Positions 7,535 through 52,516 of a stretch of 64,000 nucleotides of DNA are shown here, one piece after another. Positions within the stretch are counted from its first letter, which is position 1. Each line of letters opens with the position of its first letter. Below the pieces are notes generated by a model. That model was not told the DNA's origin. It did not search any database and saw only the letters and a program-made list of their open reading frames with translations. A program made the position numbers and the translations under genes. The DNA is from a virus: the IMG/VR virus record IMGVR_UViG_3300033512_000452, positions 1 to 64,000 of that record; one strand, 5' to 3'.

Positions 7535-7538
7535 GTAA

Positions 7539-7610: not shown

Positions 7611-7627
7611 TTTAAAAAGAGGGAAAT

Positions 7628-32100: not shown

Positions 32101-33970
32101 TACATCAAACGCTATTACAAAAAGCACAGTCATGGACCTATACAACCAAGTGGCGCCGACAGTTAAAGGCTACGGTCAAAATACTGGAATTGATTTGCTA
32201 AGCCTGATGGATAAAGCTTTCGCTGGATACAACGAAGACACTGTGAATTTAATGAGTCAGTCCATCCAGGGGGATGTTAATGCTCAGTCATGGCTTGCGA
32301 ATACAAACCCAGAAGCGCTGAAGGCTGCTGGCGGCGATCCGGATTCAATGCGTTGGTTTGATACAAAAGGAGATAATTTATTCCAATCAAACCCGATTGA
32401 AGCTTCACGTCAATTCTTAAATCTGTCCAGAACTAACACCGCTGGCGGAATCGAAGCTCGGAGACAAATTAGTAAATACGGGATTAGTCGCTCAGAATCT
32501 AACGCAATGTCTGGCTCTCAATTATTAACAAAGATGGGTGTGGACTCCGGCATTGTTAATACGTTAGAAAAAACTGGTTGGGGTTTTGAAGATCTTGGCA
32601 ATCCGAGTTTAACAAAAACAGTTGACGGTGTTACGTACAGCACGCCAGCTTACAATATAAATAAACTTCAAGATCAATCTTTTGGGCTTCAATATGCTGG
32701 CGTTGCAGCTCAGCAAGAATACAACGCGGCATCTCGTCCGATTCAAGATGAAATAAATAGGATACAACATAAATCACAACTGAGGTCATTCAAGCAACAA
32801 AGGTCTAATATCGAAACCAATAGATCTTTTGAGTTACAACAAAACGCAATATCATATGACCGCATGACAACGGGTCACGAGTACCAGCGTTGGCAGACCG
32901 AGTTTAACCGAGAGGCTCAATTACAAGAAAGGGGTTGGACCAGGGAAGATTGGGGTTATCAGGATTGGCAGAGTGGTTTCCAGCGCGAGACAAGTTTGCT
33001 TCAGCGCGATTGGAGTAGATCTGATAATAAATACTCAGCGACACAACGCGCATCCTCTCGCTCTCTTGATTTAAGCCAAAGACAGTGGGCCGTTGAAGAT
33101 CAACAATTTAACCGCCAAGTATCCGGTTTGCAGTTTAGTTGGTCAATGGAAGATTTCGATGAAAATATTAGATTCTCATCTGGCAGGGAAAGGAAAAATT
33201 TAATCAAGCAGCGTGACCGCGCTGTAACCACCCAGAACCTCGAAGAAGGTCAGACTGAAAAACAAAACTCTCGTCAAGCTAAAGTGTGGGCGAAACAAGA
33301 TGAAATGTGGACGAAAGAGTCTGATCATATTTCGGAGATCAATAAAAGACAAGAAGATCTTTGGGCACGCGAAGATGAAATGTGGACGAAAGAGAAATCC
33401 CACATTGAAACTATTCGCAATCGGCAGGAAGAGGTCTGGAAAAAAGAAGATAAGCAATATACCAAACAAAAAGAGTATTCCGAAAAACTTATGGCTCTCG
33501 ATTTGTTGCAGTACAACTTAACAGTTGCTCAGCAAACAGCATCTTACAATATGCAAAAAGAAAATCTTATAAATCAAGAAAAAGATTATAAGAAGTTATA
33601 CAAACTCCAAAAGGACCAAATTGATCTGCAAAGGAGTTACGAAGACAAGCAGATTGCCCTCCAACTCGCAAGTATCGCCAACTCTCAAGCACAGTTAGCT
33701 GAGCAAAGAAAAATGACTGTTGGAATTAAGGATTTCGGCCAAGCCGCAAGTGCCGCTTTGGACGCTTCAACCTTGAGGGCTAAAATGGCACCGTTGGCAA
33801 CTGCCATTGAATACATAAGCAATATGGTGGATAACATAAACAATCTTGATACGAATAAAACAAATGCACTTGAGTGGACTATTGATACGTTGGATGGTCT
33901 TGACACTTACAGACTTCAACAACTTCGTAATTTTATTTACGATATCAACAACTCAAACCCACCGGACTAA
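23177..33970 (+). CDS. giant 3597-aa tail protein: tape-measure-like C-terminal third fused to a long N-terminal region with an SF2 helicase-like core (polyvalent-protein type)
   Basis: Uninterrupted ORF in the tape-measure position. The C-terminal part has hydrophobic Gly/Ala-rich segments (GVGIMAAGVSAAE, AAGIGGAIAATVGTL) and periodic Trp repeats (RWQTEF, EDWGYQDWQ, RDWSRSD, KVWAKQDEMWTKE, DLWAREDEMWTKE, EVWKKED). Confidence 0.8.
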   Translation: MSKATRAILRRYEERKNLAGLRPNAKGYEMPNIESDDDFEQYNLEQRAKEFWSSLHPELSSPIPLTNPAAGYEDIRTLYANLPPAQPTTRMSTKEDWNASLLSSASRDLDEYEVMSGFSQPKRKPQTPTPLGLPTSRSFRSMMASTIAKEITIQPTESENALIYARENPTVNTLMRAYDPSLARNTVNLGQYDSRSNETIFEMSNRQRARETKGGSSFVINTLGVAFNRQVHSSLKNQLGFVPLMENLTLAQEKDIMLIPGYSPEVDEIRNSDSFKQAMLERGGSEREALLEAIGGLNVPFVKLSPDAKPTRYQRGGKDNNKFLPTETGGYVFDSSTDRFVPYNPKNAYSLSDDMLEKIKGVLGGTHVDFMRKEQRDAMTGIVRDTRNAAPEVDFSTIAIEYFQGMLQYAVGNVDKRIEIETKKAGGALHNPDGLRDNIKTQIARMFSASTEIYNFFNAQYAHGVDPDANKEPDHESAKRSLSDFNNAYALAAYPKMKDTSFLSFSDISTFFNLGKTVPSVNENGNVFLKNKRKKIEIKNELVEVNNFPRNLQVTQTVSRSMLSFGTLTGAHLELDGRDSIETMQAADADVFESLIAFKGGYKQDNLFAYLFGKVIFNTFKKTDQKQSQALAQYTLANSNPQFGERVALQNSAVTDYDKRRYQIGSFMKRLGVQSIPVPGFFSKNGELNDGQGLINLDDIRVTDPKKVKEYWRQKLINQENARHESSMAAYKSAYTTETNFNAEERISKLREQQEIVDQYAFRRIDIDDVFETYADFDRRIKETKNLPMPIGNRVNNLSVLSEIHAKNISEIDKFKAANAAKKFGYFYDYKRVPEGYAPLVLNSDDSGIVRDMVLPNPGLKQGDYPASIKKMMNAIVMMYSAEGIGVMGETKQEADMSELGDALDRSEMVVFGGRLINRVSMDKEFPGGASELWGVNSNETEEDSDFANTAPGYSKDGTSEFNTALSRERSALILMAKDAAKRLGKSVKITKDTTIEKLREIVYSESNWMKTMVDDAITNGGKGGFNPYNFDPSYKTASIAISKATRLNTSTMERVGDGWKVPAQPINALLAAVDNAFSRFTRNSPVSGAGNNPLTVPEKQGPVKANVPYTLKGQTGERLPTPDELNELGVDLEEYKKIMNKKGGSGAYIHLEARIGESLNNQSDRMESIRYGLSKIGVPIGRKKAEAPENRPALPAGNFASNVWGRFRAEAPEKYGPESEVLAPYFSEMNGISRKELDNRAMTASKIIQDRRSGLENPITSYGNILDDYLDNYYGRGIENKEAFETWVSDRGSSDPVEFGKFMSQVFVPLIGQHTYIKQSNRGEYDHAGTVYNELSRIIPKASEMLPKMSEVLAAGEPNDVVGDQTNVSSTLNDVLYPRYSDKINGILSRVNDSISSGRNFLLGSPPGSQKTSAIYQAVSARPGLGIITTPLSSLSRGHESRFRKGLAENGIYDVPSTFFLGGHPGEFDPDRMDQAEYDKDVAEYNNSHYEFLRAVMEKSGVDAVFRGVDESGEYTTRKYSIDEARGPNFRNFIGRGTHPWSAFVDLYGTPKFKRSVINENTSEDNRVVAIMSPEKLSHLQGENGENPSKLGRIINYLKNEDQIGAIAIDEVQKGFTDANVSRPDLLDQIRVARDEYPRVPVMMAGGSLDPDDVDMIKDFFSEQGIDSHYERTNMSKYIDPDVILAKRDQWGKIAAERMNQDPNLLTYVDSTSRANEIYGIVSAGGQDAHIQHKGTGDKRFPGAVSREMNEDVSRHISDRTNMPRTVATGAMGEGIDMPWVKNTQLIGIPNNTDEIMQRAMRARESNMGPGERSTVTMITDLDEIQKRANGIKETAASVTPNSILAAFRRVQGFLTNGDASPNWKISGKQIEDVIGDTLYASTNNHTSRLHAGMVKGIMATSGLLAMDGDDGFNYTIHNDVSELSDDDIKKKLNDGVYKDPETLVDNPLTMQEYVNKSANYRKTLMMSAYHSIRHQHIRQSLAKITAEAPDNKPNFMVPGQENLFLKIKTENGMEYQKATGGSGPDFSEISELDIVTAQQRGEIVGTIHDHISAHGRSGFSSSDKELSALGSVEVVESTGLKRFEANAKGDNFVSDSSPSFDLKAIESAFAKVVKSLNNFGGRMEEINEAMADGTSSLSKNMVAFNSVIKDLTPDERSGVSNIAKQQQGLYSAAGNDLLAGFVAQKLDPLYQPRSNSQSFDFYQPSTGKTFDPIQAARAAQAEQRSALVESSRKDFFARSGVSSNEIAKRYGVSKETLVGRMRQDAFRGFSDTDGSPRGVGERAKIDGVSVSEQIGNILIEREEGRKKTLSIYGSDISRGTVNKALAKRGMLFDEASIGDVNDIISESEAQNATSVERKRSIRRFEISTGGQSSKALTHFSGGMTDTEISEMPEQEYQQLTERVTETIESVRGRVEGIKQLGNMAGKVLKQAADIQGRDLLSRDEDTLVTRGKQGLSPVSDDELSGMIGRANSWEDMFSGLAGGRYGRKLGIFRGKQINERKANRSLSELIGSDEIDEDIFSMDPDELVDRPGMFGGLKDRLRGRQTRKDHVAEQIHEQQDIQDNQSVFKRPMIQAAFAGYIVGNAFSQIAGSSLQNAYQYTAQNPYMQSSGFSPFSGTGSGFALRQKVNEEELGKSFQESHGISMSLGYMNLGFGKALQSAQYGVGIMAAGVSAAESVSSIAFQQSMMGTTPKAMKALGKAAGIGGAIAATVGTLTSVFDVANEPLADYIFDKEKLGERSYTIGTGPDSFIANNALLDTLSKETKLDFWDDPITRIGTNINSFIPGMGTAVFEANKQYANSLGLSNEEILKAMPKRVADVLAPLVESEEHKKASDLNDRAIENLQRAGLGVTREQASPITDGAMDVFGNNASVTYSEIMGDYYEQYGIKASVTDSMLKNTATASGYRRDSREMYDLLADFSSAGSESGAYNTFERKSQTFSATANTTGLISALNPGIDTSVDRARVHDWYESSTSNAITKSTVMDLYNQVAPTVKGYGQNTGIDLLSLMDKAFAGYNEDTVNLMSQSIQGDVNAQSWLANTNPEALKAAGGDPDSMRWFDTKGDNLFQSNPIEASRQFLNLSRTNTAGGIEARRQISKYGISRSESNAMSGSQLLTKMGVDSGIVNTLEKTGWGFEDLGNPSLTKTVDGVTYSTPAYNINKLQDQSFGLQYAGVAAQQEYNAASRPIQDEINRIQHKSQLRSFKQQRSNIETNRSFELQQNAISYDRMTTGHEYQRWQTEFNREAQLQERGWTREDWGYQDWQSGFQRETSLLQRDWSRSDNKYSATQRASSRSLDLSQRQWAVEDQQFNRQVSGLQFSWSMEDFDENIRFSSGRERKNLIKQRDRAVTTQNLEEGQTEKQNSRQAKVWAKQDEMWTKESDHISEINKRQEDLWAREDEMWTKEKSHIETIRNRQEEVWKKEDKQYTKQKEYSEKLMALDLLQYNLTVAQQTASYNMQKENLINQEKDYKKLYKLQKDQIDLQRSYEDKQIALQLASIANSQAQLAEQRKMTVGIKDFGQAASAALDASTLRAKMAPLATAIEYISNMVDNINNLDTNKTNALEWTIDTLDGLDTYRLQQLRNFIYDINNSNPPD
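26436..26451. repeat. exact copy of the 16-bp palindrome
   Basis: Inside the giant ORF, read as SGAGN. Confidence 0.95.
27360..28610 (+). other. SF2 helicase/ATPase-like core inside the giant ORF
   Basis: Motif I-like LGSPPGSQKTS (about 27388), motif II AIDEVQ (about 28006), motif V-like TVATGAMGEGIDMP (about 28474), motif VI-like MQRAMRAR (about 28566). Gln replaces the usual Gly in motif I and the usual His in motif II. Confidence 0.6.
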
Positions 33971-34049: not shown

Positions 34050-34505
34050 ATGAACAGTTATATTTCGCTTGATCACGGAGCTGGTTATATAGGAATGGAA
34101 GATGATAGTATTGTTTCTTTAGAAGATGAAACAATGCTTGTTTCGCAGGATTATTCTCTTGGCTTTTTTTCAACGCCAATGAAAAATTGGGATCCAATAA
34201 TTGTGCGCCCTGCGTCAGTTAAATACACACTCAATGGAGAAGCCTATTCTGTGTATGGGTATGGAAGCAATAAGGAATGGGATGGCTTTATTATTGCTGG
34301 TGTAGCTGAAACAGACGAGCTTTCAAGTGTGGACACTTTACGCGAATTACTTTCCGTTAATGATAATATTCGTTTTACTGACCATTACGGAAACGAGTAT
34401 ACCGTTGTTTCTATTGGGCCATTTCAAGAAAAGCATCTACTGTCTGATTGGGAAAATAAAAATAATCGCGTCTTTATCAAAACAAGACTTGTTGAGGTTA
34501 AATAA
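34050..34505 (+). CDS. distal tail protein candidate
   Basis: ATG at 34050 after GAGGT. 151 aa directly after the tape-measure-position ORF. Confidence 0.5.
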   Translation: MNSYISLDHGAGYIGMEDDSIVSLEDETMLVSQDYSLGFFSTPMKNWDPIIVRPASVKYTLNGEAYSVYGYGSNKEWDGFIIAGVAETDELSSVDTLRELLSVNDNIRFTDHYGNEYTVVSIGPFQEKHLLSDWENKNNRVFIKTRLVEVK

Positions 34506-37500
34506 TGAGGAACTCTTCGTATAAATTCAGTAAAAGTCAGAAGACGAAAAGCAAGATAACAATCGACGATCCACTTCTTCGGTTTTCTGGGTTTTCAATA
34601 AATGACTATGTCGTTTCAAATGACGGGTATTATGGATATGACTCGTCGAGTTTTGATGATACCTTATTGAGGATAGCTACGGTCAATTCTTGTACAACAA
34701 GGCAATTGTTTTATTCGTATTGCGACAATTTGCCAGGCTTGAGTCCGTGGGTAAATTCGGATATTACCGTTTCTTTTAATTCAATCCCTGGATTATTTGG
34801 GAATAGAATTTTCTGGCAAACAGCAGACGGGAAAGTTCACTCCGCAATTATCACAGAAAGTGGGATTACGGATCAGGTAGAGATTTTTACGCAATCTCAA
34901 GAATTAGCCATTGCCCCAATATCTGAAACGGAATTTTATGCGCAATACGTAACCGGCGTATCTAAGCGTGTTTTTTATTACAATACAGCGACAGACGTTA
35001 AACATGAATGGTGCGGTTCTCTTTTTGCGGAAAAACACAGTATTAAATCTTTCGACGCTGAGCGCGTAAATGATATTGATTATGTCTTCACGACAGACGC
35101 TAATGGAAACAGGGCTGTTTGTTTGGAAGTGGACGTTGCTGGTTTTTCTACACCTGAATGGGCTGAGCAGTATTACGTTATTCCAATCGACGTTGTTGAT
35201 GTCGACTCTTTTTTCAATCCGCATTTTGCGAGCGTTCTAAACGGTAACTTATTTCTAACTGGACATCTTGCTCGTCCAGCATCAAAAGGCATGTTGATTT
35301 ACACCAAGGGACCAACATGGTCCCTTGGAAAAGAAATGTTTATTGGCTTCCCTGCAAATACTTATCAAACAGGAAAGTTACATATAATTGGGGATGAGGT
35401 TTGGTATCTTGGTGTTGATTTGCTTTACAAAGCGACTGCTACGTCTTATGTTGGTGTAGATAAATCGTTTGAGATTGATGATTTTTATGATGTTAGAATA
35501 TCAAAATCAGCAAACACAGCGGATACGATTTCTCTTATTGTGAAAAACGCTGATAATATTCGCCCTGGAATGACGTTGAAGTTTGATGGAGTTATAAACG
35601 ACAAAGAGTACAATTACGGCATTTTTGACATAGACAGTATAAATAAGCAAACAAACAGAGATGGACAAGAAATTGTTTTATACGGAAGATCCTTTCCACA
35701 CAAACGGCTCTCGCAGTGGGTGAGTGACAGTAGCCTTGATTACTGGTCACAAACAAAACACAACGCTATGGCTACCGACATCTCTAAAAGCATTAGAAAA
35801 GCAGGTGAATGGGTAACATATGACTCTGGTACAGACAACGAAAATTTGCGCTTAAGATCTATTGGCGATTCAATTATGTATGTCTCAGCAAAATCAAGCA
35901 AAAATTCAACGATGGCTGCTAAATTCAAAAAGCTATCTACTACCGCGACTGATTACGATGGAGTCAGTTATGGTGTTGGTGTAAATTATTACGAAGAAAC
36001 TGTTCTTGACGCAGCGGAACGTCTCGATCGTGAAATTGAAGACGTAGACGAAGATGATCAAAAGTATTACGGGATACTTGCGCTTTGGGGCGTGAAAGAG
36101 CACAATGGATCTGAAGGGATTTCTGTCTATCTTGTAAAAAAAGATGCCCAAACATATATAACATCAGTAGCTTTAAGTGTACCAAATCAAACAGATCACT
36201 GGATTAGTATAAAATGGATCGACGGGCACATTTTCGTTTACTATCGGTTAGATAGCTCAGAAGAGTGGTTGTCTATAATTGATTATCTTTACGATTTAGA
36301 GGAATCGCCATATATAACAGACACAGATCAGTCAGGGCGAGGTTTTGTGTTCGGACGTGTGTCTGAACAATCTGTCTCGACTACATTGTTTCAAGACATT
36401 ACATTTGACGCATCTACAATCCCGGTTACATCACATCAAAACTTCCCAGATACAGGTACGATTAAGATTGATGACGAATCGATTCCTTACACATCCAAAG
36501 GAACACTAACGGAAACAACAACAAAGTACCTGAGCCCGGCGATTATTTACAGGCCAGACTTGGCTCCAACGACAACTCAATGGATTTGGAATAAAAGCGA
36601 TACTGCCAATGTCACTTATACAACACACCGTGTAACACCGGACTTAACAGCTAACAACAGTGTTCTTTATGGTGGAATAAATTACTATAAAACAAAAATC
36701 ACATACCCATTTGATTACTCTGGAAAAAATCTCAACGTATCTATCTATCTCTCTAAACTAAGCAACGTTGGTAGCAACTTACTATTTAGCGCTCAAGATG
36801 ATTCTGGAAACATATTAGCTAATGGGTCCGCGAAGTATGTAATAACAACAAGTATAATCTCTGCTATTCATCCGTCATACAGTTGGGTTAATTTTAAAAT
36901 CCCAGGGTTTACATCCGATAGTGCATGGTTTTCTGTCTCCAACACTGAAATAAGTATACCTTACGTTGCTGGTTCTCCAACTATATATTACTTTATTTCT
37001 ACCGTTAATTTATCAGGAAATGCGCCATACACTTATGGCGGACCTACGTACTATCGGTATTATGCCGACACCCCAGGCACGAATAGAGTATTATCAAATA
37101 CTGCTATCAATTTTAAGATAGAGCTTCCCACACCAGGCACTCAGTATTATCGTCTGTACCTAGGAAATGGCTATACTAGCGTTAATTATATGAATGATAA
37201 CTTAGTCGTAACGTCTGGGACTGGAATTGGTAGAGTTTTCACAAACGTTGGTTCTGGGTATAATTACGTCCTTGTTTTAGAGGATACATCAACAATTGAC
37301 AACACTTCCAGTTTGAAATTCTTTTCGCAAACAACTCGAAGTTTAAATGTTTTTTATGTTAATCGTCAAAGTAATTCGTCAATTCATTTAGCTGGGGCGA
37401 GCGTTTCTTTGGTAGAGAATTTAACTGTTGAATCTTGCCCATTCTCTGTAACGGACACCAGGTATTACTCAAGTGAAAAAGATATAACTGTATCAGATAT

Positions 37501-39040
37501 GATAATAGAGCTTTGTGCCAAAGCTGGCGTTTCGTGCAGTTCGAAGAAATTAATAAACAAATCCGTATTGATAGGGACGCCGTGGGATATTTACATTCCA
37601 GAAAGCTCTGTTTTTTGCAATTACGAATCATTCAACGCTGACGATAATATTATTGTCGTTGATGATTACTCTGATCTCCCTTCGTCTGGGGTTGCGGAGA
37701 TAGATGACGAGAATATTTATTACGGACAAAAATCAACACAAGAAAGGACTTTGTTCGAATCTTTTTTTGTTGAAAGTATTGGTGATATAGCATCTGGCAA
37801 TTTATCCTTAACAGGCCGACGTGTTTACTTAAAAGATTTTGACGCTGCGTCCGTAACTGTTTCACTGAAAGTTATTGTTGTGTCTGGAAAGGGATCTGGG
37901 CGCTCGTTTAATGTGTCTAATATTCCAGACACGTCAACTGATTCGTTTATTGAATTTAACGAAAACACGTCAAGTATACTCGATACAACCTCTAAAATAT
38001 CATTCGTGGTCACTGATAACACATTGGTAAATATCATTAGAGGCTACCAGGGCACTCGCCCAGCCACACACGAGAGTGGTACTATGTATATTCAGGTGAG
38101 CGAAAGTGGTCTTGTTAATGATGTTACAATTCGCAACAAGCGTAATTTTATAGTTGATTTAGAATACTTATTTGTTGGAGAGGAGGAGGTTGGTGTCTAT
38201 GGTTTGTCTTATGGAGATCAAGCTGTCATACTCACAGTGAACAGCAGTGGGGTTAGGTATTATAGCTACATTAACGGCGAAAAAACACTTATCGAACAAT
38301 TTCCATATCCATCTTCTGGCGGAAAAATAAAGATATCTTTATTTGAGGATACAATATCTATTTGGGTGAATAAGAAATTCGTTCATTCGTTTTATGTATC
38401 AGATAATCACTACACAGAGGTAAAGGAAAACGAATACTGCATGGGTCTAATTTCATCAGAGTCTGTTTCTGTTTTTTACTCTATTGACGAAATCAGCAAC
38501 AGGGTCGATAACTGCATTCTTGATATTGGACAGACCGGGGATCAAATTCTTACGTCTATTATTGGAGAGAAAAAAGTTTACACAAAAACAGCAGAAAATG
38601 GAGCTCTTGAAGTGTTTTTATCCAGAGACGAGATTGCTGAGGAGATAGAGGGATCTTTTGAGTTTGCTGAATCGTGGTCTGACGCTAACAGTTTCTCTCG
38701 TTTACGCGTTGAAGGGATTTCCTTTTGCGAGCGTTATGATGAATTTTTAATGCGTAATTACGGGAACACTTTTAGATTATTAAACTCCAACGAATCAAAC
38801 GAAGAGTACGAGATAATTAGTTTTGCTGATTTAGAGTTAAATGATATTGGTTCGAATGTTAAACTTGTGCGAATGCTTGGGTTTGCCGATCCAAGAGTTG
38901 AAGTGCACGATAAAATAAACACAACTAAAGGCCAAATACTTGTTGATTCAATTTCTTACTCATTTAACACAACGGAGCAAGATGTAACATTTGAATTTGA
39001 TATATCCGGCAGGGTTCCGAGAGAAAACATAGGTGAATAA
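34505..39040 (+). CDS. large tail tip / host-recognition protein (1511 aa)
   Basis: Position after the Dit-like gene; size fits. No motif recognised. Confidence 0.6.
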   Translation: MRNSSYKFSKSQKTKSKITIDDPLLRFSGFSINDYVVSNDGYYGYDSSSFDDTLLRIATVNSCTTRQLFYSYCDNLPGLSPWVNSDITVSFNSIPGLFGNRIFWQTADGKVHSAIITESGITDQVEIFTQSQELAIAPISETEFYAQYVTGVSKRVFYYNTATDVKHEWCGSLFAEKHSIKSFDAERVNDIDYVFTTDANGNRAVCLEVDVAGFSTPEWAEQYYVIPIDVVDVDSFFNPHFASVLNGNLFLTGHLARPASKGMLIYTKGPTWSLGKEMFIGFPANTYQTGKLHIIGDEVWYLGVDLLYKATATSYVGVDKSFEIDDFYDVRISKSANTADTISLIVKNADNIRPGMTLKFDGVINDKEYNYGIFDIDSINKQTNRDGQEIVLYGRSFPHKRLSQWVSDSSLDYWSQTKHNAMATDISKSIRKAGEWVTYDSGTDNENLRLRSIGDSIMYVSAKSSKNSTMAAKFKKLSTTATDYDGVSYGVGVNYYEETVLDAAERLDREIEDVDEDDQKYYGILALWGVKEHNGSEGISVYLVKKDAQTYITSVALSVPNQTDHWISIKWIDGHIFVYYRLDSSEEWLSIIDYLYDLEESPYITDTDQSGRGFVFGRVSEQSVSTTLFQDITFDASTIPVTSHQNFPDTGTIKIDDESIPYTSKGTLTETTTKYLSPAIIYRPDLAPTTTQWIWNKSDTANVTYTTHRVTPDLTANNSVLYGGINYYKTKITYPFDYSGKNLNVSIYLSKLSNVGSNLLFSAQDDSGNILANGSAKYVITTSIISAIHPSYSWVNFKIPGFTSDSAWFSVSNTEISIPYVAGSPTIYYFISTVNLSGNAPYTYGGPTYYRYYADTPGTNRVLSNTAINFKIELPTPGTQYYRLYLGNGYTSVNYMNDNLVVTSGTGIGRVFTNVGSGYNYVLVLEDTSTIDNTSSLKFFSQTTRSLNVFYVNRQSNSSIHLAGASVSLVENLTVESCPFSVTDTRYYSSEKDITVSDMIIELCAKAGVSCSSKKLINKSVLIGTPWDIYIPESSVFCNYESFNADDNIIVVDDYSDLPSSGVAEIDDENIYYGQKSTQERTLFESFFVESIGDIASGNLSLTGRRVYLKDFDAASVTVSLKVIVVSGKGSGRSFNVSNIPDTSTDSFIEFNENTSSILDTTSKISFVVTDNTLVNIIRGYQGTRPATHESGTMYIQVSESGLVNDVTIRNKRNFIVDLEYLFVGEEEVGVYGLSYGDQAVILTVNSSGVRYYSYINGEKTLIEQFPYPSSGGKIKISLFEDTISIWVNKKFVHSFYVSDNHYTEVKENEYCMGLISSESVSVFYSIDEISNRVDNCILDIGQTGDQILTSIIGEKKVYTKTAENGALEVFLSRDEIAEEIEGSFEFAESWSDANSFSRLRVEGISFCERYDEFLMRNYGNTFRLLNSNESNEEYEIISFADLELNDIGSNVKLVRMLGFADPRVEVHDKINTTKGQILVDSISYSFNTTEQDVTFEFDISGRVPRENIGE

Positions 39041-39261
39041 TGAAAGTTAGGCGCGGAAAAACATTAAAAAATTCCAGGACGAGATCAAACATTGTTGCTA
39101 GTGTTTACAAAATAAATGGTAACACACTTGATATTCGTGTTTCTGGATCCCCCTCAACACTTAAGCATGTCTTCTTAAGCGGCGACATGTCTAGTGTGTC
39201 CGTTGGTGATTCTGTTTTAATTACTTGGGTAAACAGCAGACCTGTCGCTCTGCTCATGTAA
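39040..39261 (+). CDS. hypothetical protein
   Basis: TAATG overlap with the upstream gene. Last gene of the plus-strand module. Confidence 0.55.
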   Translation: MKVRRGKTLKNSRTRSNIVASVYKINGNTLDIRVSGSPSTLKHVFLSGDMSSVSVGDSVLITWVNSRPVALLM

Positions 39262-39264
39262 TAA

Positions 39265-39298
39265 TACAAAAGGGATGCCTTCAAGCACCCCTTTTGTA
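39265..39298. terminator. bidirectional terminator between the convergent modules
   Basis: TACAAAAGGG-14 nt-CCCTTTTGTA. Confidence 0.75.
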
Positions 39299-39323
39299 TT
39301 ACTCTAATCATAGTACCTGATGA

Positions 39324-39530
39324 TCAAAGGGAGTATTGGCACATCCCGCTATCGTTGTGACCAATCAATTTAATCGTTCCGTTTCGATAAAGATTATCGA
39401 GTTGATTTGAGTATTTATGCCAATCTTCCGGCGTGTCTCCAATCTCACGTTTGAACCAACTTGCTTTAATTGCGTCTGTTGGACCGGCGTCTAACGCTGC
39501 TTTTGTTCGTTCCTCAACTGTCATTGTCAT
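39324..39530 (-). CDS. hypothetical protein
   Basis: ORF track entry. Confidence 0.6.
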   Translation of the reverse strand: MTMTVEERTKAALDAGPTDAIKASWFKREIGDTPEDWHKYSNQLDNLYRNGTIKLIGHNDSGMCQYSL

Positions 39531-39532
39531 CC

Positions 39533-39775
39533 TTACACCCCATATTGCTCGGCGATATCTTCTTCGTTTAATTTTTTAACCCATCGCTGAACCAGTGTAT
39601 AAAACCTCTGTGTTCCGACAAATATCTGTTTACCATTCTCTACAAACCAATCCACACCATCACCCAGGCAGACTTCTGCCTGGGTTTCTGTGTTGGCGAG
39701 ATAGAAGGCGGAAGATCCTTCGTAGACAATAAATCTTCCGTTTTTAGCAAGTACCTTTGAGGCTGTTGCTTCCAT
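39533..39775 (-). CDS. hypothetical protein
   Basis: ORF track entry. Confidence 0.6.
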   Translation of the reverse strand: MEATASKVLAKNGRFIVYEGSSAFYLANTETQAEVCLGDGVDWFVENGKQIFVGTQRFYTLVQRWVKKLNEEDIAEQYGV

Positions 39776-39781
39776 GTTTCT

Positions 39782-41608
39782 TTACATTTCTCCTTCCAAT
39801 TTATGGAATTCGCAAATAATGTTTGCGATTTCATTCCCGGGATAACCTTCATCATCAACGCTCACCGTCATGGAGTTCTTCCCTCCAGTCGGCTTACTGA
39901 AGATGTGGTGGCGATCTTTCGCTTCATATCTGTATCCTCCGACAATCATTGGCTGGAAAAGCGCCGTTCGCTTCCCTTCCGTGCCGGATACAAGGTGAAT
40001 GATCTCGTCAAATCCTTTCGGGAAGGTGTCTTTAAACCCACCTTGCAACGAGAACGTTTTGTATCCAGGTTTTGTATCATCGCCTTCTGTCTGTTTGATG
40101 TGGGAGATGACAACGACATGCACTGGCAGCGCCATCCATTGCAGAACGATTGGATAGACGACATTAAAGAGATCTCCCCATTCCTGGACCGTCATGCGGG
40201 TTTTCCCTTTTAGGACCCCATAGAACTTCTCATTCTCTTGGAATTGGTCAATACTGTCGATGATGACAGTTTTTACGGGGATAACCTTCTTTTCACCCTT
40301 GTAGTCGATGTGGTACATCAAAGACCCGTTCTCGAGTTTGGAGTTGTTCAACTCGGCTAACTTTTGGCTGAGAACACTCTTGGTGTTTGCTGAAGGTTCG
40401 ATTGTGATCCGGTTTGCCCTAGCCGATCCCGATCCTTTTTCGAGATCTAAAAAGAGCGGATCTGGCATCGTAGCAGAGAGCCGAGTGTTGTGCGTTACGA
40501 TATAGTTGTCTGTAACATATAACTGGTTTTCAGAATCCAGCATGATGCACTGCGCCTCTTTTTGGCCTATCTTTTCTATTGATTTGATGTAACGATATGG
40601 AGGATATTTTGATCCAGGGTTGTATTTGTCAGCTTTTCTCTGGAGCCTGAACGGGCTCACATCTCTAGGCAAGGATACAGTGATTCTATAAGACTCCCTG
40701 CAAGGAATTCTTATGCTATTTTTTATATAACTAGAAGATCTTTTTACAACCTTTGCCACTCCTCCAATTGACTGAATCAACTCAATAACATCTTCGGAAA
40801 GCAACCTAGACGAAGTTGAAAATTCAACGTTTGCTTTTGATGGATACCCATCTGTGTCAAATAAGCCCTGTAGAATCGCCACTCGGTTGTTAAATGTTGA
40901 GTATTTATATTTATGAGGAATGAATTTTTCGTGACTGTATAATCCCCACAAACTCAAATCCTCCAGCATCACCTTGACTGGATTTGGATGCGATGTTCTG
41001 TTCTCTTTTCTAATCGAAAAGTTGCAACCTTGAATATTTTTAACAATTATTCCATCTGGGACGTTACGTCGCAAATGATCGATTAATTCAGTATCCGATT
41101 TACTAAACATTGGCGTATTACGTGTAAATCCACCATCCCCAAGCAAAAGACCGAGTGTGTACGGATCAATATCCAATGTTTCTTGTTGGTCGAAGTCGAA
41201 TTTTTTTATCATCGGGACGAATTGAAATCTATTCCTAGATAAAGTATCCATTTTTGAAAGAATCTCCGACGTGCTCCTTACAGACCATCCTCTCTTATTT
41301 TGTCGTTGGTCGTGATGTTGAACAGTCCATAAGTGTTCTGCGCAAGCCTCTGTGCTAAACCGATCATTGAAGTTGATCTTATAAATTTCCTTCTTCCCCT
41401 GCGGGAATACTCCAACAATAGTTGCTTTACCTCCGTCTGGATTAATTACTTTATCTCCTACTTTCGCATCTCCCATTCTCATCCAACCATCAGGGGTAAG
41501 AATTTTTGATTCAAGGCTTTGAGCCTTACCGGCGCCAGGTGCGCCAAGTATGCAAATTCTAGCCGGTCCATAATTCGGCTTTTCTGCGTCTGGAAAATAA
41601 AAAGTCAT
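39782..41608 (-). CDS. Sak4-like (AAA_24/RecA-fold) recombination ATPase interrupted by an intein
   Basis: Joining the exteins gives ICILGAPGAGK|TRLSATMPDPLFLDLEKG, which restores the Walker A GxxGxGKT. VIIDSIDQF is Walker B-like. Confidence 0.8.
   Translation of the reverse strand: MTFYFPDAEKPNYGPARICILGAPGAGKAQSLESKILTPDGWMRMGDAKVGDKVINPDGGKATIVGVFPQGKKEIYKINFNDRFSTEACAEHLWTVQHHDQRQNKRGWSVRSTSEILSKMDTLSRNRFQFVPMIKKFDFDQQETLDIDPYTLGLLLGDGGFTRNTPMFSKSDTELIDHLRRNVPDGIIVKNIQGCNFSIRKENRTSHPNPVKVMLEDLSLWGLYSHEKFIPHKYKYSTFNNRVAILQGLFDTDGYPSKANVEFSTSSRLLSEDVIELIQSIGGVAKVVKRSSSYIKNSIRIPCRESYRITVSLPRDVSPFRLQRKADKYNPGSKYPPYRYIKSIEKIGQKEAQCIMLDSENQLYVTDNYIVTHNTRLSATMPDPLFLDLEKGSGSARANRITIEPSANTKSVLSQKLAELNNSKLENGSLMYHIDYKGEKKVIPVKTVIIDSIDQFQENEKFYGVLKGKTRMTVQEWGDLFNVVYPIVLQWMALPVHVVVISHIKQTEGDDTKPGYKTFSLQGGFKDTFPKGFDEIIHLVSGTEGKRTALFQPMIVGGYRYEAKDRHHIFSKPTGGKNSMTVSVDDEGYPGNEIANIICEFHKLEGEM
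40487..41524 (-). mobile_element. intein (346 aa) with LAGLIDADG homing-endonuclease domain; class-3-like (WCT) features
   Basis: Starts AQSLESKILTPDGW and ends YIVTHN, followed by Thr as the +1 residue. Two LAGLIDADG motifs (LGLLLGDGGF, LQGLFDTDGY). Block B EHLW, block F Cys (AQCIMLD), and Thr before HN. Confidence 0.8.
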
Positions 41609-41949
41609 ATAGGTTCTCCTTCAAACACGAATTCAATTGGTGTTGGATCTTCGATCCAGTTTGCTGGGAGATTGTCTTCAACGAAGTAAGCGAACTTACT
41701 GGCTCCCAAAGCGCTTTCGTTGTAAGAAATAACAACTTCCATGTACGATCCGAATTCATGGCGAAATGTCCTGGTGCAGAAATAAACAAGACCCTTGATG
41801 GTTTCCGGCACCGGAAATGTTTTTTCGAGTTGATCCCTGTACCGATTGCACTCTGCTTGCATTTCGGAAAAGTAGTCCCTTTTGGAGATCACTTGCACAC
41901 AACTTTCGTCACATGGCGTACTTCCTAATTCCAAATAATCGTACATCAC
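41605..41949 (-). CDS. hypothetical protein
   Basis: ORF track entry. Confidence 0.6.
   Translation of the reverse strand: MMYDYLELGSTPCDESCVQVISKRDYFSEMQAECNRYRDQLEKTFPVPETIKGLVYFCTRTFRHEFGSYMEVVISYNESALGASKFAYFVEDNLPANWIEDPTPIEFVFEGEPI
41802..41817. repeat. one-mismatch palindrome variant TTTCCGGCACCGGAAA
   Basis: Inside the ORF at 41605-41949, read as FPVPE on the minus strand. Confidence 0.85.
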
Positions 41950-42722
41950 ACAGCCTCCTTGACTGTTGCAAACTCACAGTCTTGAACAGAACAATAACGG
42001 CAGAGCCAGCTATCTTCCGGCGCCGGTGGGCAATTCGTCTCAATCGCAGTTTTTAACGTGTGGCTTCTTTCGCTCAAATCGGCATCGATGTCAATATGAG
42101 GTACCTTCATCTGAACTGCTCCAAGATGTCCGTTTGGATATTGCCTAAAACAAGTAGGGCAAGTCGTAACACCGTCAATAATCCGAAGTGTGTTCTTGCA
42201 TTTTGAGCACTTGGTCGGGCCGCTCATGTCGATATATTGGATAAACATATCCTTTACGTTTCCGCCATCACCCTCGAGGAGCTTACGGTAATAATTAACC
42301 TGCCCTTCATGGGACCCATACGGCAAGTTATCCTTCGATAACCAGCGGGTTGTCTTCCAATCAATCAGAGTTTCGCCGTCAAAGTAATCCACCTTGCCGA
42401 CAATGTCTCCGTTTGATACGGGGATTTCAGAGGATTCGTTCGTGTCCTCGATGTATTTATGGACAGCGTTTCCGATAAATAACACCAGAAGATCGTGGAT
42501 ATAAGGCGGTTCTGGGTTGACCTTAGAAAAGTAAGATTTTCTTAAACAGGACGTGATATCCGTAACATGGATCTCACCGGTGCGATCCTCGCTGCCAGCA
42601 AGCATCGCTTTTAATAGGGGGTACGAATACCCACATGGGGGCGTTTTGCTCGTTACAGCGCATTCTAGGCACGTTTTAGAGTCAATTACACCGTACTTGT
42701 CGCCGCTACATTTGATATTCAT
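41946..42722 (-). CDS. PD-(D/E)xK nuclease, Cas4/RecB-like, with Cys cluster and inserted zinc ribbon
   Basis: GNAVHKYIE; VDYF...LIDWKTT (D...DxK); QVNYY (QxxxY). N-terminal Cys residues plus C-terminal CRYCSVQDC. Insert CSKCKN...CPTC. Confidence 0.7.
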   Translation of the reverse strand: MNIKCSGDKYGVIDSKTCLECAVTSKTPPCGYSYPLLKAMLAGSEDRTGEIHVTDITSCLRKSYFSKVNPEPPYIHDLLVLFIGNAVHKYIEDTNESSEIPVSNGDIVGKVDYFDGETLIDWKTTRWLSKDNLPYGSHEGQVNYYRKLLEGDGGNVKDMFIQYIDMSGPTKCSKCKNTLRIIDGVTTCPTCFRQYPNGHLGAVQMKVPHIDIDADLSERSHTLKTAIETNCPPAPEDSWLCRYCSVQDCEFATVKEAV

Positions 42723-42723
42723 T

Positions 42724-42993
42724 TTACTTATTCACTAATGCTGTTCCGCTTGGCGCTTCGATATGAACGAATGGATATCTCTCCATCAAGAGAAGCGCAA
42801 ACCAGGGCGTTTCGATTGCGAGGATCCCAGGGTGGGCGTTGAAGTTTACCAGCGATTGGTAGACCGGTTCAATGTTCAACTGCGCGCCGGGAACAATATT
42901 GATGCCTTTCAGTAAACTGAAATAGCGATTTTCCATCTTGAAGATGAAACCTTTAATTTCTCCAACCTGATCGTCTTTTAAATATATTTTCAA
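42724..42993 (-). CDS. hypothetical protein
   Basis: ORF track entry. Confidence 0.6.
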   Translation of the reverse strand: MKIYLKDDQVGEIKGFIFKMENRYFSLLKGINIVPGAQLNIEPVYQSLVNFNAHPGILAIETPWFALLLMERYPFVHIEAPSGTALVNK

Positions 42994-43002
42994 TGTGTTC
43001 TC

Positions 43003-44391
43003 CTAGAATTCGATTTCACGGTATGAGTTGATACGCCGCCATTCACGAGGTAGCGTTTTAAAATCATTAGTATGCTTGTGGTAAGCAACCTCTTCTGTAT
43101 CCCCTGTCTTTCCAATTGAGTTTTTAAGTACAGCAAACTTGATCACGTCTACGACGATCTTATCCATGCCCACAAAAGCGCCGCCTTTATCGACGTTTTC
43201 AGGGAACTTCATCAAGTCAGATTCCGTCGCTTCTTGGGAGTATGGCGCTACGATCTTCTTCGCTGCCTGCTCCCCGGCGTAGAGGATATCTGCCATCGTT
43301 GGACGCTTTCCTCTCGGGGCGCTTTGGTTGTACCCTTCCCGTTTTAATTGACTGGTCACAATGACCGGGATCCCCGTTTCCTGTGCGATTGAGCGTAACT
43401 GCTGAGCGGCCTGCAAGACCACTTCGTATTTGCCGCTGTCTGCGCCGCGGATAAGCTGGAGGTAATCCAGTTGGATTATTTTGATATCTTCGTGCCTTGC
43501 TAACTCCGAGCGAATGAACATGGTAACTTCGTCAATCGTTTCGATCCCCATGTCTTTGATGTAAAGAGGTAGGTTGATAATCTTCCCTCTCGCTTCCGCC
43601 ACGGCTTCCAGTTCCTGCTCGGAGAGATTTCTTGGGTCGCGGATCTTTGCGTTGTTAATCCCTGTAAGCATGGCGAGCGAGTTGATCATAAAATAGTCAT
43701 GCGGGTTTTCGAAATTAAGCACCAGTACGCCATTTCCGTCCATAGCTGTGTGCAGAGCTTCGTAGCGCAGGATGGTAGATTTGCCGCCGCCGGGACGAGA
43801 CGGGATAATCACAAAATCCCCCTGGTCCACAAAGTCAACAATTTTCTGGATGGCTTGGATTCGAAAATACCACGGCACCTTTGTCATGTTTCCCTGGCGC
43901 AGCCCTTCAAATCGCTCGTCGAACTCCGGCAGCATTTCTCCGATAGCCATTGCGTTCTCATGCTTGCGGCGCCGCAAAGAGATCAACTTCTGAGTGTACA
44001 GAGCTATGATCTCTTCTGGTTTCTTCCCGTTCTTCGTGTCAGCACTCATCAAAGCGGCGTAATGTCCGATCTGGCGTTTTAAAGAGAGCTCCTCTACTTT
44101 GTCAGCAGAAGTGATAATTGACAGCGGATCTGCACGTCCCTTTAGATATTCCAGGTACGCTTCTCCGCGGTTCTTGATACTTCCAATCGTATCTAGCGTT
44201 CCATTTTCTCGCATAGTTTCTGTAACAGTGCGCATGGTTACAATCCCTGATTTTTGCACCTCAAGGATTGTCTTCCATATTTCTTTGTTCGATTCGACAA
44301 CAAAGTCACCCGGCGATAGGTGACTTGTTTCTGGGATACAACCATGGTCGACCAATACTGATCCAATAACCGTCTCTTCCCATTCACTCAT
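43003..44391 (-). CDS. dnaB: replicative DNA helicase, DnaB family
   Basis: Walker A PSRPGGGKST, QLDYLQLI, and VTSQLKREG (SQLxR-like). 462 aa. Confidence 0.85.
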   Translation of the reverse strand: MSEWEETVIGSVLVDHGCIPETSHLSPGDFVVESNKEIWKTILEVQKSGIVTMRTVTETMRENGTLDTIGSIKNRGEAYLEYLKGRADPLSIITSADKVEELSLKRQIGHYAALMSADTKNGKKPEEIIALYTQKLISLRRRKHENAMAIGEMLPEFDERFEGLRQGNMTKVPWYFRIQAIQKIVDFVDQGDFVIIPSRPGGGKSTILRYEALHTAMDGNGVLVLNFENPHDYFMINSLAMLTGINNAKIRDPRNLSEQELEAVAEARGKIINLPLYIKDMGIETIDEVTMFIRSELARHEDIKIIQLDYLQLIRGADSGKYEVVLQAAQQLRSIAQETGIPVIVTSQLKREGYNQSAPRGKRPTMADILYAGEQAAKKIVAPYSQEATESDLMKFPENVDKGGAFVGMDKIVVDVIKFAVLKNSIGKTGDTEEVAYHKHTNDFKTLPREWRRINSYREIEF

Positions 44392-46509: not shown

Positions 46510-46800
46510 TTACTTCAAAAGGCGTTTGTTGAATGGTGGTATGTTTGGCCGTTCTTGTGTGTAACTTTTTCCATCTAAGGCGTAAGTGATCCACTGTTCG
46601 CCTTCGAAATCACCACCAAGTTCGAATAACACTCCGGGATGTTTCGCGCTGAATGACGCCATGGATACTTCTTCGTCACTGAAATGCTCTTCGCAGCAGC
46701 CGATAAGCGCTCCAACTGAGATGTATTTTTCGACTTCTTCGTTTTCGTCAACCGTTCCGTTGTTTTCAAATTTTAAATAATAATAAGGTCTTGAGCTCAA
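46510..46800 (-). CDS. hypothetical protein
   Basis: ORF track entry. Confidence 0.6.
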   Translation of the reverse strand: MSSRPYYYLKFENNGTVDENEEVEKYISVGALIGCCEEHFSDEEVSMASFSAKHPGVLFELGGDFEGEQWITYALDGKSYTQERPNIPPFNKRLLK

Positions 46801-47381
46801 TTTATCCCTTCCTTTTCTTTGATTTTGTTGATTTTATCCTGGTAGCGCCAAAACCACTTCTCTCGAAATGCGCTTGGGATCATGTAGGCTGGGAAGTCGT
46901 CTTTGGTGTATTGTCCATTGTAGCGATCTTGAGCGTCCAGCATATCGGTTGCGTGAAACCCAAACTGAGCAAAAGTATTTCCGATCGTAAGGCTTGCCGC
47001 ATAACTCGTAAATGCGCTAAGTTCTCCAGTCCAGTGATTAACATACCCGACGTCCCCTAAACCGGCGCATTTACACACACCGATTCCCATTCGCCCAATC
47101 GTACTGCGGGCTTTCATTTCCGCAACGACGCCGTTCACGCAGCCGATAATTTCCTTCGTCACGCAAAGCATGGTTGAATTTGGCGAGATAGAAACATCCT
47201 CTCCGTCCTTGTAATACTCCGGCTCCGAGTAGGTTAACTTTCCATCATGCCAACAAACGCCGACAAACCAATTCCCCAGGCGAACATCGTAACTGTTCGG
47301 GTTGAGTTGTTCTTCATTGAATGGCTCAATAACGATCAATCCTTTTTTTATGTACTCTCTGATACTTGTTTTCCCTAACAT
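46797..47381 (-). CDS. dcd: dCTP deaminase family protein
   Basis: Start at the ATG at 47381 after AGGAGA. MLGKTSIREYIKKGLIVIEPFNEEQLNPNSYDVRLG is a classic Dcd N-terminus. AEMKARSTIGRMGI also present. Confidence 0.8.
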   Translation of the reverse strand: MLGKTSIREYIKKGLIVIEPFNEEQLNPNSYDVRLGNWFVGVCWHDGKLTYSEPEYYKDGEDVSISPNSTMLCVTKEIIGCVNGVVAEMKARSTIGRMGIGVCKCAGLGDVGYVNHWTGELSAFTSYAASLTIGNTFAQFGFHATDMLDAQDRYNGQYTKDDFPAYMIPSAFREKWFWRYQDKINKIKEKEGIN

Positions 47382-47481
47382 AGATCTCCTTGAAAATGTA
47401 ATAAAAATTGCCAGTAACAATCACCTTATTTATTGTATCACGTTAGTTACTTTTTAACGAACAGGCGAATCTTAAAACTTT

Positions 47482-51385: not shown

Positions 51386-52516
51386 TTACTCAACAGGTAT
51401 TCTTTTTAGGAATTCGAATTCAACAGGCGTGACCAATTCAGTCATCTTGCGAGTTAAATCGTCCTGTCCTGTGGCGATCAGATGACCATAGATGTCCATT
51501 GTGATACTTGGCTTTGAGTGTCCAAGCGTTCTGGAGATCGTGGTAATTGATGCGCCGGTATTGATCATGTGAGACGCTGCGGTATGGCGAAGATCATGGA
51601 AGCGGATCTTCTTAACCATCGCTGTTTTTAATTCTTCCTTGAATTCAGCAAGCAGAGCGGAGTGGTCCATTGGCGTTCCGATCGTTGTGCAGAACACCAA
51701 ACCAAAATCTTTCCACCTGTTTGCAAAGAAAGCCTTTTCGTAATTCTGGCGTTCTTTATGCTCCCTTAGGATTTGAATCGTCTGCTCCAGTATCCTTATG
51801 GTTCTGATTCCAGATTTTGTTTTCGGCGCCACGAAGGATTGCAATCCATGTTCTAATTGGCGCTGAATTAAAATCGTCCCTCTCTTGAAGTTGATATCAG
51901 TCCACATCAGACCTAACAACTCACCCTGCCTCATACCGGTTAATATCGCCAGGTGATAAAGCGCCTTGTTGCGAGATTCTTTGGTTGAGATAAGGAATTG
52001 CATAATCTCATCTTCTTCGAGGATGTTCATTTCGCCGTGCTCGTAAGAGGGCTTATCCACGTAATTTGTTGGATTAATAGGAATAAGCCCTCTTTTCGTG
52101 GCGTCCTCCAGGCAGATATGCAGAACTTGATGGATATACTTTCTCGTGCGAGCTCCGACTTCCAGTGAGTCGTAATAATCTGATATTGTGTCTATTTTCA
52201 ATTCAGACAGTTTGTAACCACCGATATCCGGCACGATATAATCATCGACGTAATGCTGGTATGATTTTGCTGTGCTTTCTCTGATCGCCTGCCTGTGGGC
52301 TTTCATCCATGACGCGGCGAATTCAGCTAAGGTAATCTTTGACGTATTAAAGGTTAATCCTCTGACCTGCTGCCCTTTAATTTCTTTGAGCCAATTGCGA
52401 GCGTCCGTTCTCGTCTCGAAAACCTTCGTTATCCTTGCGCCGTCAATGTATATCTGTGCCCTGAACATATCGCGCTGTTTGAAAATTGATCCTTCCCCTT
52501 CGTTCTTCTGTCTCAT
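51386..52516 (-). CDS. int: tyrosine recombinase / phage integrase
   Basis: C-terminal RFHDLRHTAASHMI...LGHSKPSITMDIYGHL gives R, HxxR, H and Y. N-terminal SAM-like domain. Confidence 0.9.
   Translation of the reverse strand: MRQKNEGEGSIFKQRDMFRAQIYIDGARITKVFETRTDARNWLKEIKGQQVRGLTFNTSKITLAEFAASWMKAHRQAIRESTAKSYQHYVDDYIVPDIGGYKLSELKIDTISDYYDSLEVGARTRKYIHQVLHICLEDATKRGLIPINPTNYVDKPSYEHGEMNILEEDEIMQFLISTKESRNKALYHLAILTGMRQGELLGLMWTDINFKRGTILIQRQLEHGLQSFVAPKTKSGIRTIRILEQTIQILREHKERQNYEKAFFANRWKDFGLVFCTTIGTPMDHSALLAEFKEELKTAMVKKIRFHDLRHTAASHMINTGASITTISRTLGHSKPSITMDIYGHLIATGQDDLTRKMTELVTPVEFEFLKRIPVE

Follow-up and report, generated by a model that had tools for sequence, protein, structure and literature searches.

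The DNA analysed here, referred to throughout as the window, is a stretch of 64,000 nucleotides from a virus (IMG/VR record IMGVR_UViG_3300033512_000452, positions 1 to 64,000), and this report concerns a gene on its minus strand that codes for a Sak4-like ATPase whose ATP-binding loop appears to be split by an intein. The precursor open reading frame (ORF; 39782..41608, minus strand) is intact over 1827 nt and its translation gives a 608-amino-acid protein made up of an N-extein, the putative intein and a C-extein. Its ATG start shares bases with the stop codon of the preceding ORF (ATGA), and a GGAG sequence is found approximately 8 nt before it. The N-extein (41525..41608, minus strand; amino acids 1-28) ends in GAPGAGK, that is, in the Walker A motif up to its invariant Lys, which forms the -1 residue. 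The C-extein (39782..40486, minus strand; amino acids 375-608 and the stop codon) contains the Walker B-like sequence VIIDSID and begins with Thr375, the +1 residue (codon 40484..40486, minus strand), which would be the Walker A Thr and the splice-junction nucleophile at once. The 346 residues in between (40487..41524, minus strand; precursor residues 29-374) are predicted to form a HINT domain that is interrupted by a LAGLIDADG homing endonuclease. With a slash marking the splice junction, the N-terminal junction reads CILGAPGAGK/AQSLESKILTPD and the C-terminal junction VTDNYIVTHN/TRLSATMPDP. Deleting the 346 residues gives a 262-amino-acid protein with the canonical Walker A motif GAPGAGKT, and the fused, intein-less extein site across the junction reads CTTGGCGCACCTGGCGCCGGTAAG followed directly by ACTCGGCTCTCTGCTACGATGCCA. 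A preliminary description of the locus had stated that residues 29-374 are an insert whose excision joins GAPGAGK to T. The translation of this segment maps exactly to 40487..41524, the motifs quoted in that description (EHLW, AQCIMLD, the terminal THN, Ala1 and Thr+1) all lie where it had placed them, and the observation is confirmed in all its details, the agreement being far greater than chance would yield.

The sequence of the two exteins supports an assignment of the host protein to the AAA_24 / Sak4-like ATPases with a RecA core, as had been proposed. With the insert in place, the precursor matches Pfam AAA_24 (PF13479) with 43.9 bits over positions 16-194, and the spliced protein does so with 66.1 bits over positions 3-194 of 195 (cut-off 27). 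Similarly, the E-value against phrog_124, named 'Sak4-like ssDNA annealing protein', falls from 1.5e-18 for the precursor to 1.2e-26 for the spliced protein. Two intein-less homologues, P0096 (56% identity, 262 amino acids) and P0097 (36% identity, 265 amino acids), align to the spliced protein with no gap at the junction and run through GAGK/T without interruption, which bears out the comparison with intein-less genes suggested earlier. Across these three proteins the pattern I-L-G..G-A-G-K-T..L..T.P.P-L-F is invariant, as are D105 and D108 of the Walker B-like VIIDSID, and the exteins retain every residue that is invariant in this alignment of the family. None of the phage Sak4-like proteins in GenBank exceeds 30% identity to the spliced protein, and a PDB sequence search with the spliced extein returned no match even at E<=10. 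DNA binding and single-strand annealing by Sak4 are ATP-dependent and proceed with a cognate single-stranded DNA-binding protein (SSB) (PMC5928155); a scan of neighbouring ORFs revealed no SSB. Because Sak4 needs ATP and a P-loop intein blocks the ATPase function of RadA (work cited in PMC6195587), the precursor would be expected to be inactive until it is spliced.

The insert contains the intein blocks A, B, F and G in the expected order (AQSLESKILTPDG / ...AEHLW / AQCIMLD...LYV / NYIVTHN), all on the minus strand. Block A (AQSLESKILTPDGW; 41483..41524) carries Ala1 (41522..41524) in place of the Cys or Ser nucleophile of class 1 inteins. Block B (STEACAEHLWTV; 41321..41356) provides Cys61 at position B:7 (41342..41344), His64 at B:10 (41333..41335) and Trp66 at B:12 (41327..41329). 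Block F (AQCIMLDSENQLYV; 40514..40555) contains Gln334 and Cys326 at F:4 (40547..40549), the predicted initiating nucleophile, and block G (NYIVTHN; 40487..40507) ends the insert with Thr344 (G:5), His345 (G:6) and Asn346 (G:7), the last being the cyclising Asn. When the insert was searched against the sequences of the PDB, the significant matches were inteins only, with E-values down to 1.8e-8: gp41-1 (6RIZ, E=1.8e-8; 6QAZ), the Mycobacterium smegmatis DnaB-1 intein (Msm DnaB-1, also DnaBi1; 6BS8, E=7.5e-8) and the M. chimaera DnaB-1 intein (Mch DnaB-1; 6RIX, 6RIY). In the HMMER alignment to these inteins, His64 and Trp66 fall on H-x-W, Cys326 on the block F Cys and Thr344-His345-Asn346 on T-H-N. 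The insert also matches the intein-bearing portions of terminase, helicase, primase and DnaB models in PHROGs and NCBIfam, and a protein database search with it gave 95 matches with E-values down to 1e-79, 68 of which were aligned as relatives with the query to give a family of 69 full-length inteins.

The predicted structure is in agreement with this. An AlphaFold2 model of the intein, built from an input alignment of 60 relatives, has a mean predicted local distance difference test (pLDDT) score of 95.4 and a predicted template modelling (pTM) score of 0.92. Its best whole-chain match in a Foldseek search of the PDB is PI-SceI (1LWT; E=5e-17, query-normalised TM 0.76), followed by further endonuclease-bearing inteins (TliVMA, PhoVMA, PI-PfuI). 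The splicing domain matches Msm DnaB (6BS8), MchDnaB1 (6RIY) and the variant of gp41-1 carrying the Trp-Cys-Thr (WCT) triplet (6RIZ) with target-normalised TM values of 0.82, 0.80 and 0.80, respectively, and the Foldseek probability is 1.00 for PI-SceI, the VMA inteins, the Msm and Mch DnaB inteins and gp41-1. Comparison with hidden Markov models, proposed as a check on the intein, succeeded in one half: the endonuclease is recognised by Pfam LAGLIDADG_3 (E=1.5e-9), whereas no Pfam intein splicing-domain model passes its threshold on the insert, the only one to appear being Hom_end_hint with E=0.12. As the splicing-domain models remain below threshold, the HINT assignment rests on the PDB matches, the family alignment and the fold.

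The weak Pfam result, together with a Ser at position 3 of the insert, might be taken to indicate a non-intein domain of the Hint or bacterial intein-like (BIL) type, or an endonuclease, fused into the ATPase, or a different N-terminal boundary such as Ser31. We regard this as extremely improbable. The limits Ala1 and Asn346 give a Walker A motif without gaps relative to the intein-less homologues; the boundaries of the intein are placed at precursor residues Ala29 and Asn374, since any others would leave residues inside GxxxxGKT. Ser31 was rejected as the N-terminal boundary for the same reason and because position 3 is Pro in most relatives (55 of the 69 aligned inteins). A domain of 346 residues that stayed in place for good would be incompatible with a catalytic loop as strictly conserved as this one, and both sequence and fold match bona fide inteins with the terminal blocks included; the fold, these blocks and the gap-free Walker A motif contradict a BIL or fused-domain reading, which was likewise rejected. 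The HINT and LAGLIDADG fold of the model and the gap-free alignment of the host after removal of the insert thus agree with the original view of the insert, and its identification as an intein is supported at the level of sequence and structure prediction.

The homing endonuclease domain is predicted to span intein residues ~101-305 (40610..41224, minus strand) and to adopt an I-DmoI/PI-SceI-like fold; by Foldseek, it matches the endonuclease domain of PI-SceI and also I-DmoI, the latter with E ~5e-5 and target TM ~0.5. Two LAGLIDADG motifs had been noted before and both are present. Motif 1, or block C (DPYTLGLLLGDGGF; LGLLLGDGG; 41126..41167, minus strand), contains the catalytic Asp130 (41135..41137), and motif 2, or block E (RVAILQGLFDTDGY; ILQGLFDTDGY; 40844..40885, minus strand), contains the catalytic Asp225 (40850..40852). 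Block D (SHEKFIPHKY; 40907..40936, minus strand) lies between them and retains the conserved Lys200 (40925..40927). The match to LAGLIDADG_3 (PF14528) is above the gathering score, and Hom_end is matched weakly. Since D130, K200, D225 and some twenty other positions in the endonuclease part are conserved to at least 90% among 61 sequences, the endonuclease function seems to be under selection in the clade. Judged from these residues, the endonuclease of this intein looks intact, and we infer that this copy is active.

Class 3 inteins are recognised by Trp at B:12, Cys at F:4 and Thr at G:5, by the lack of an N-terminal nucleophile and by Ser or Thr at the +1 position (PMC5222942, PMC7664689). 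The intein described here had been assigned to this class from its WCT signature, and Ala1, Trp66, Cys326, Thr344 and Thr+1 were all found, with the W/C/T residues aligned to those of Msm DnaB-1. His B:10, Trp B:12, Cys F:4, Thr G:5, His G:6 and Asn G:7 are each present in 69/69 aligned inteins. The first residue is Ala in 61 of them, Ser in four, Glu in two, Pro in one and Gln in one, and in none is it Cys. Among the 68 relatives, the +1 residue is Thr (63) or Ser (5), and the -1 residue is the P-loop Lys in most. As W/C/T and the other block residues are kept in every sequence and Cys is never first, the signature is a property of the clade and not a coincidence of a single sequence. The assignment of the intein to the class 3 type is therefore supported by the sequence comparison. 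Its nearest solved relatives by sequence are two class 3 inteins and also gp41-1, which belongs to class 1; class 3 inteins are described as a monophyletic clade (Tori and Perler 2011, as represented in PMC3196547).

Block B has the form CxxH, with Cys61 at B:7. This position is occupied by Cys in 50/69 aligned inteins and by Ser, Ala, Asp, Thr or Gly in the remaining 19/69; elsewhere, the corresponding motif is TxxH in class 1 inteins and DxxH in M. smegmatis DnaBi1 (PMC6195587). The neighbouring position B:6 is Cys in 48/69 of the aligned inteins and Ala in the query. Cys61 sits in the catalytic centre near Cys F:4, where it provides a second thiol. One might speculate that the thiols of Cys61 and Cys326 form a reversible disulfide or a metal site and that splicing thereby depends on redox or metal conditions in the infected cell, which we regard as doubtful. 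If such a switch existed, activation of the phage recombinase would depend on these conditions too, and the device would be widespread among phage inteins at P-loops. Msm DnaBi1 has a similar switch in its Cys48-Cys118 trap, from which the one proposed here would differ by using residues of the splicing blocks.

The presence of Cys61 also raises the possibility that splicing follows another route, either with Cys61 of block B as the initiating residue or with a class 2-like attack of Thr+1 on the N-terminal junction. Ala1 is compatible with class 2 as well as with class 3, Cys61 occupies the catalytic-centre position B:7 where Cys is common in the family, and inteins with a class 3 signature could in principle take either pathway until Cys F:4 is mutated (PMC5222942). 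On the other hand, Cys F:4 has been needed in all class 3-signature inteins tested so far (PMC5222942), and W/C/T are invariant in the alignment while the B:7 Cys varies. The intein falls outside class 2 of the KlbA type. The hydroxyl of a +1 Thr is less nucleophilic than a thiol, which counts against a class 2-like route. Class 2 inteins are known in KlbA genes only (PMC3196547), and a class 2 mechanism was rejected on this ground and because of the invariance of W/C/T. Taken together, we consider a departure from the class 3 route very unlikely.

Several observations weigh against a functional class 3 intein. Grafting the WCT residues onto a class 1 intein is insufficient for class 3 splicing (PMC7664689), which means that the triplet is necessary, not sufficient, and gp41-1, one of the closest solved relatives by sequence, is naturally a class 1 intein. 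The block B motif is CxxH and not the DxxH of the characterised mycobacterial class 3 inteins (PMC6195587), and the nearest relatives of the intein are just 41-43% identical to it. In addition, Gln334 occupies a block F position that is His in 47/69 inteins and in Msm DnaB-1, and replacement of this His could slow the C-terminal steps of splicing.

Gln334 can likewise be taken as a sign that the element is a genuine intein that has decayed and no longer splices, leaving the Sak4-like gene dead and the phage dependent on host or other recombination functions. There is a precedent in a class 3-like intein pseudogene, Arsp-FB24 Arth_1007 (PMC3196547), and recombineering was reduced but not lost in a Walker A mutant of one Sak4 (PMC5928155), so that the phage may not absolutely need the host gene; selection cannot be gauged for want of a close relative. 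However, the Arthrobacter pseudogene is without His B:10 and Cys F:4, whereas the query has both, along with Trp B:12, the terminal His-Asn and Thr+1, all of which are known essential residues. The block F His is also absent in 22/69 inteins, including the query, and is therefore not required in the clade. The reading frame is uninterrupted over its entire length, the exteins keep all family-invariant residues and the structure model is of very high confidence. Based on this, decay of the intein appears improbable.

The composition of the gene and the distribution of its relatives point to a mobile element. The G+C content at third codon positions (GC3) drops from 53% in the exteins to 37% in the intein, the neighbouring replication genes having 51-55%, and the dip in GC content is limited to ~40450..41350. 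The overall GC content of the intein, 39.0%, lies at only the 9th percentile of the window, which is unremarkable because the tail-fibre-like genes are AT-rich too, so that the contrast with its own exteins is the meaningful comparison. P0096 is encoded on a contig (L002) that shows synteny with the window: a Cas4-like gene lies upstream, two genes downstream match window positions 38837..39252, and this copy of the gene is without the intein. A word-indexed search with the spliced extein returned two homologues only; an exhaustive HMMER search against 1.84 billion representative proteins returned 380 relatives. Among the best 150 of these 380, an insert is present only in P0098, which is 100% identical to the query; it was dismissed as an independent second copy, being the window's own protein. 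An intact GxxxxGK[ST] motif is found in 131 of the best 150, and the others are fragments or have variant loops. An exact-sequence look-up of the 608-amino-acid precursor placed it on no contig on record, and a tblastn search of the intein against the window revealed no second intein there.

The nearest inteins (41-43% identity) lie in other ATPases, mostly in PhoH. By tblastn, related inteins were found in 641 phage records, 299 of them from Mycobacterium phages, in genes labelled terminase, helicase, SNF2 and others. A neighbour-joining tree, which was calculated from uncharacterised relatives only and carries no support values, places the query among the PhoH inteins at the P-loop site. A comparison of the DNA on either side of the insertion point, made for the window, for two PhoH hosts, for Dulem virus 38 and for the intein-less L002, showed only the P-loop-coding core to be common (10-16 of 24 nt per side), and no specific homing site could be derived from these flanks. 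Such a pattern fits the published idea that nucleotide-binding sites serve as a route for extein switching (bioRxiv 10.1101/2025.01.02.630785). In PhoH hosts, inteins of the same clade occupy two sites, one after the P-loop GK and one after ...MRGR, with Thr or Ser next at both; the inteins at the MRGR site form one clade nested among the P-loop-site inteins in the same unsupported tree. Read from sequence, this suggests a site switch of the PhoH inteins within or between hosts.

We propose that 40487..41524 (minus strand) is a 346-residue class 3-type intein with a nested, double-motif LAGLIDADG endonuclease, inserted between the Walker A Lys and Thr of a phage AAA_24 / Sak4-like ATPase, and that it undergoes class 3 splicing and homing. 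Given the anatomy of the gene, its fold, the conservation of the signature, the exact restoration of the host protein, the sporadic distribution and the compositional break, we consider this highly probable; the chemistry, as well as the present splicing and homing activity, would follow the class 3 pathway of the MP-Be DnaB, Dra Snf2 and Msm/Mle DnaB inteins, on which our model is based. The 608-amino-acid precursor would fold with its ATP-binding loop split and would presumably be inactive. In the first step, the thiol of Cys326 (F:4) would attack the Lys28-Ala29 bond, helped by His64 and with Trp66 and Thr344 in a positioning role; Cys326 would thereby take over the N-extein in thioester linkage, giving the block F branched intermediate. 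Next, the N-extein would be transferred to the hydroxyl of Thr375 (+1), resulting in the standard branched intermediate. Asn346 would then cyclise with the help of His345 and release the intein, and an O-to-N acyl shift would form the Lys-Thr peptide bond that completes GAPGAGKT. The predicted products are a 262-amino-acid ATPase with an intact GAPGAGKT motif and a free 346-residue endonuclease. During co-infection, the latter would be expected to cut intein-less alleles at the P-loop-coding sequence, and repair would copy the intein into them.

The characterised inteins that most resemble the query in splicing domain are Msm DnaB-1 (6BS8/6OWN) and Mch DnaB-1 (6RIX/6RIY), which are among its best matches by both sequence and fold. 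They share Ala1, W/C/T, the His-Asn end and a hydroxyl nucleophile at +1 (PMC6195587, PMC7664689), and they are inserted directly after the Walker A Lys of a P-loop ATPase, Msm DnaBi1 being located in the P-loop of DnaB (PMC6195587). The identity to the query is ~30% over the N-terminal 70 residues. Whereas these two are mini-inteins without an endonuclease, reside in a bacterial DnaB and have Ser+1 and DxxH, the query has a full LAGLIDADG endonuclease, a phage Sak4-like host, Thr+1, CxxH and Gln for the block F His. The mycobacteriophage Bethlehem DnaB intein and other phage class 3 inteins (TerL, Cas4/RecB, helicase) are similar to the query in that they combine the signature with LAGLIDADG motifs, are phage-borne and often lie in nucleotide-binding motifs, but their host proteins are different and their identity to the query intein is <40%. 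Insertion at the TerL1-a site, between the invariant Lys and Thr of the P-loop, has been called 'classic' (PMC5050341). PI-SceI (the VMA1 intein) and the archaeal VMA inteins share the overall two-domain architecture of the query, in which a double LAGLIDADG endonuclease is nested in a HINT domain; they differ from the query in being class 1 inteins (Cys1, Cys+1) of larger size with an extra DNA-recognition region, and are 12-17% identical to it.

The true sister group consists of inteins of the type 'AQPL...QCI.VD...IVTHN/T' (P0001-P0095), which are 41-43% identical to the query over 346 amino acids and have the same blocks and endonuclease, mostly at the GK/T site. They are found in PhoH-family and other P-loop proteins of Clostridium phage phi8074-B1, PhiPA3, jumbo phages of Vibrio, Klebsiella and Aeromonas, and metagenomes. 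Their hosts differ from that of the query (PhoH, DnaC-like proteins, terminase, SNF2 or other helicases), with one subgroup at the second PhoH site, MRGR/T, and most differ from the query by a Pro at position 3, two adjacent Cys residues (CC) in block B and a His at the block F position. A more distant case is an 'AAA domain protein' of Dulem virus 38 (PP511596.1, XCD05698.1; L001:3959-5776), which carries a WCT intein (HLW, LCIAVD) at the same P-loop Lys and whose gene adjoins a PD-(D/E)XK nuclease gene, as in the window. This intein (GGGK/RLPLGTG...IVTHN/SSL) differs from the query in having Arg first and Ser+1, and is ~28% identical. It is not annotated in the Dulem virus 38 record.

Class 3 inteins have been well described, including the phage origin proposed for them, the LAGLIDADG endonucleases they carry and the preference they show for P-loops (PMC3196547, PMC5050341, PMC6195587, bioRxiv 10.1101/2025.01.02.630785). 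The element in the window is a clear but ordinary further example of this type, which would not surprise a specialist and leaves the current understanding of inteins unchanged. Modestly new are the Sak4-like host family, the CxxH variant of block B and the size of the AQPL / QCI / THN clade. In a 2025 survey of actinobacteriophages, class 3 inteins were reported in only four extein types and Sak4 was not mentioned (bioRxiv 10.1101/2025.01.02.630785), and no paper linking Sak4 with inteins was found in the literature searched. With this example, a RecA-core, Sak4-like recombinase would join the phage P-loop ATPases that have been invaded by class 3 inteins, and the large, uncharacterised AQPL / QCI / THN clade seems to move among unrelated ATPases (PhoH, terminase, helicase, DnaC-like and Sak4-like proteins) via P-loop-coding DNA. 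Being compact and having Thr+1 and Lys-1, this class 3 intein might also be another candidate scaffold for protein engineering.

For annotation, the gene is best described as a normal 262-amino-acid recombination ATPase plus a mobile element and not as a 608-amino-acid fusion protein. In related records, the product names over the intein match are mismatched ('DarB-like antirestriction', 'terminase'): among the phage records H2, H6, H8, H14, H17 and H39, several RefSeq entries use 'DarB-like antirestriction' where the GenBank counterparts have terminase, helicase or hypothetical protein. It may be the intein portion of the proteins that gave rise to the RefSeq name.

A megablast search of 39000..43000 against 50,697 phage records found no DNA match; the phage itself is therefore new, and the window is part of a new tailed phage or prophage. 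The genes for the terminase large subunit (9871..11406) and the portal (12505..14052) are followed, after the structural genes, by ORFs of 3597 amino acids (23177..33970, plus strand) and 1511 amino acids (34505..39040, plus strand). The latter has no Pfam match, and its GC content of 38% and GC3 of 34% are among the lowest of the window. On the minus strand lie genes for a Cas4-like PD-(D/E)XK nuclease (41946..42722), a DnaB-like helicase (43003..44391), a dCTP deaminase (46797..47420) and a tyrosine integrase (51386..52516; phrog_1, E=1e-73), the last of which suggests a temperate phage or an integrated prophage. An ORF of 114 amino acids (41605..41949, minus strand), for which no Pfam or PHROG match was found, separates the Cas4-like nuclease gene from the Sak4-like gene, with which it is translationally coupled. 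In the syntenic L002, this ORF is missing and nothing intervenes between the Cas4-like and AAA_24 genes. Together, the Cas4-like nuclease and the neighbouring Sak4-like ATPase form a recombination module, a pairing that also occurs in Dulem virus 38. Upstream of the packaging genes, a tRNA-Thr with the anticodon TGT (7538..7611, plus strand) is the sole Rfam/ARAGORN match in the window.

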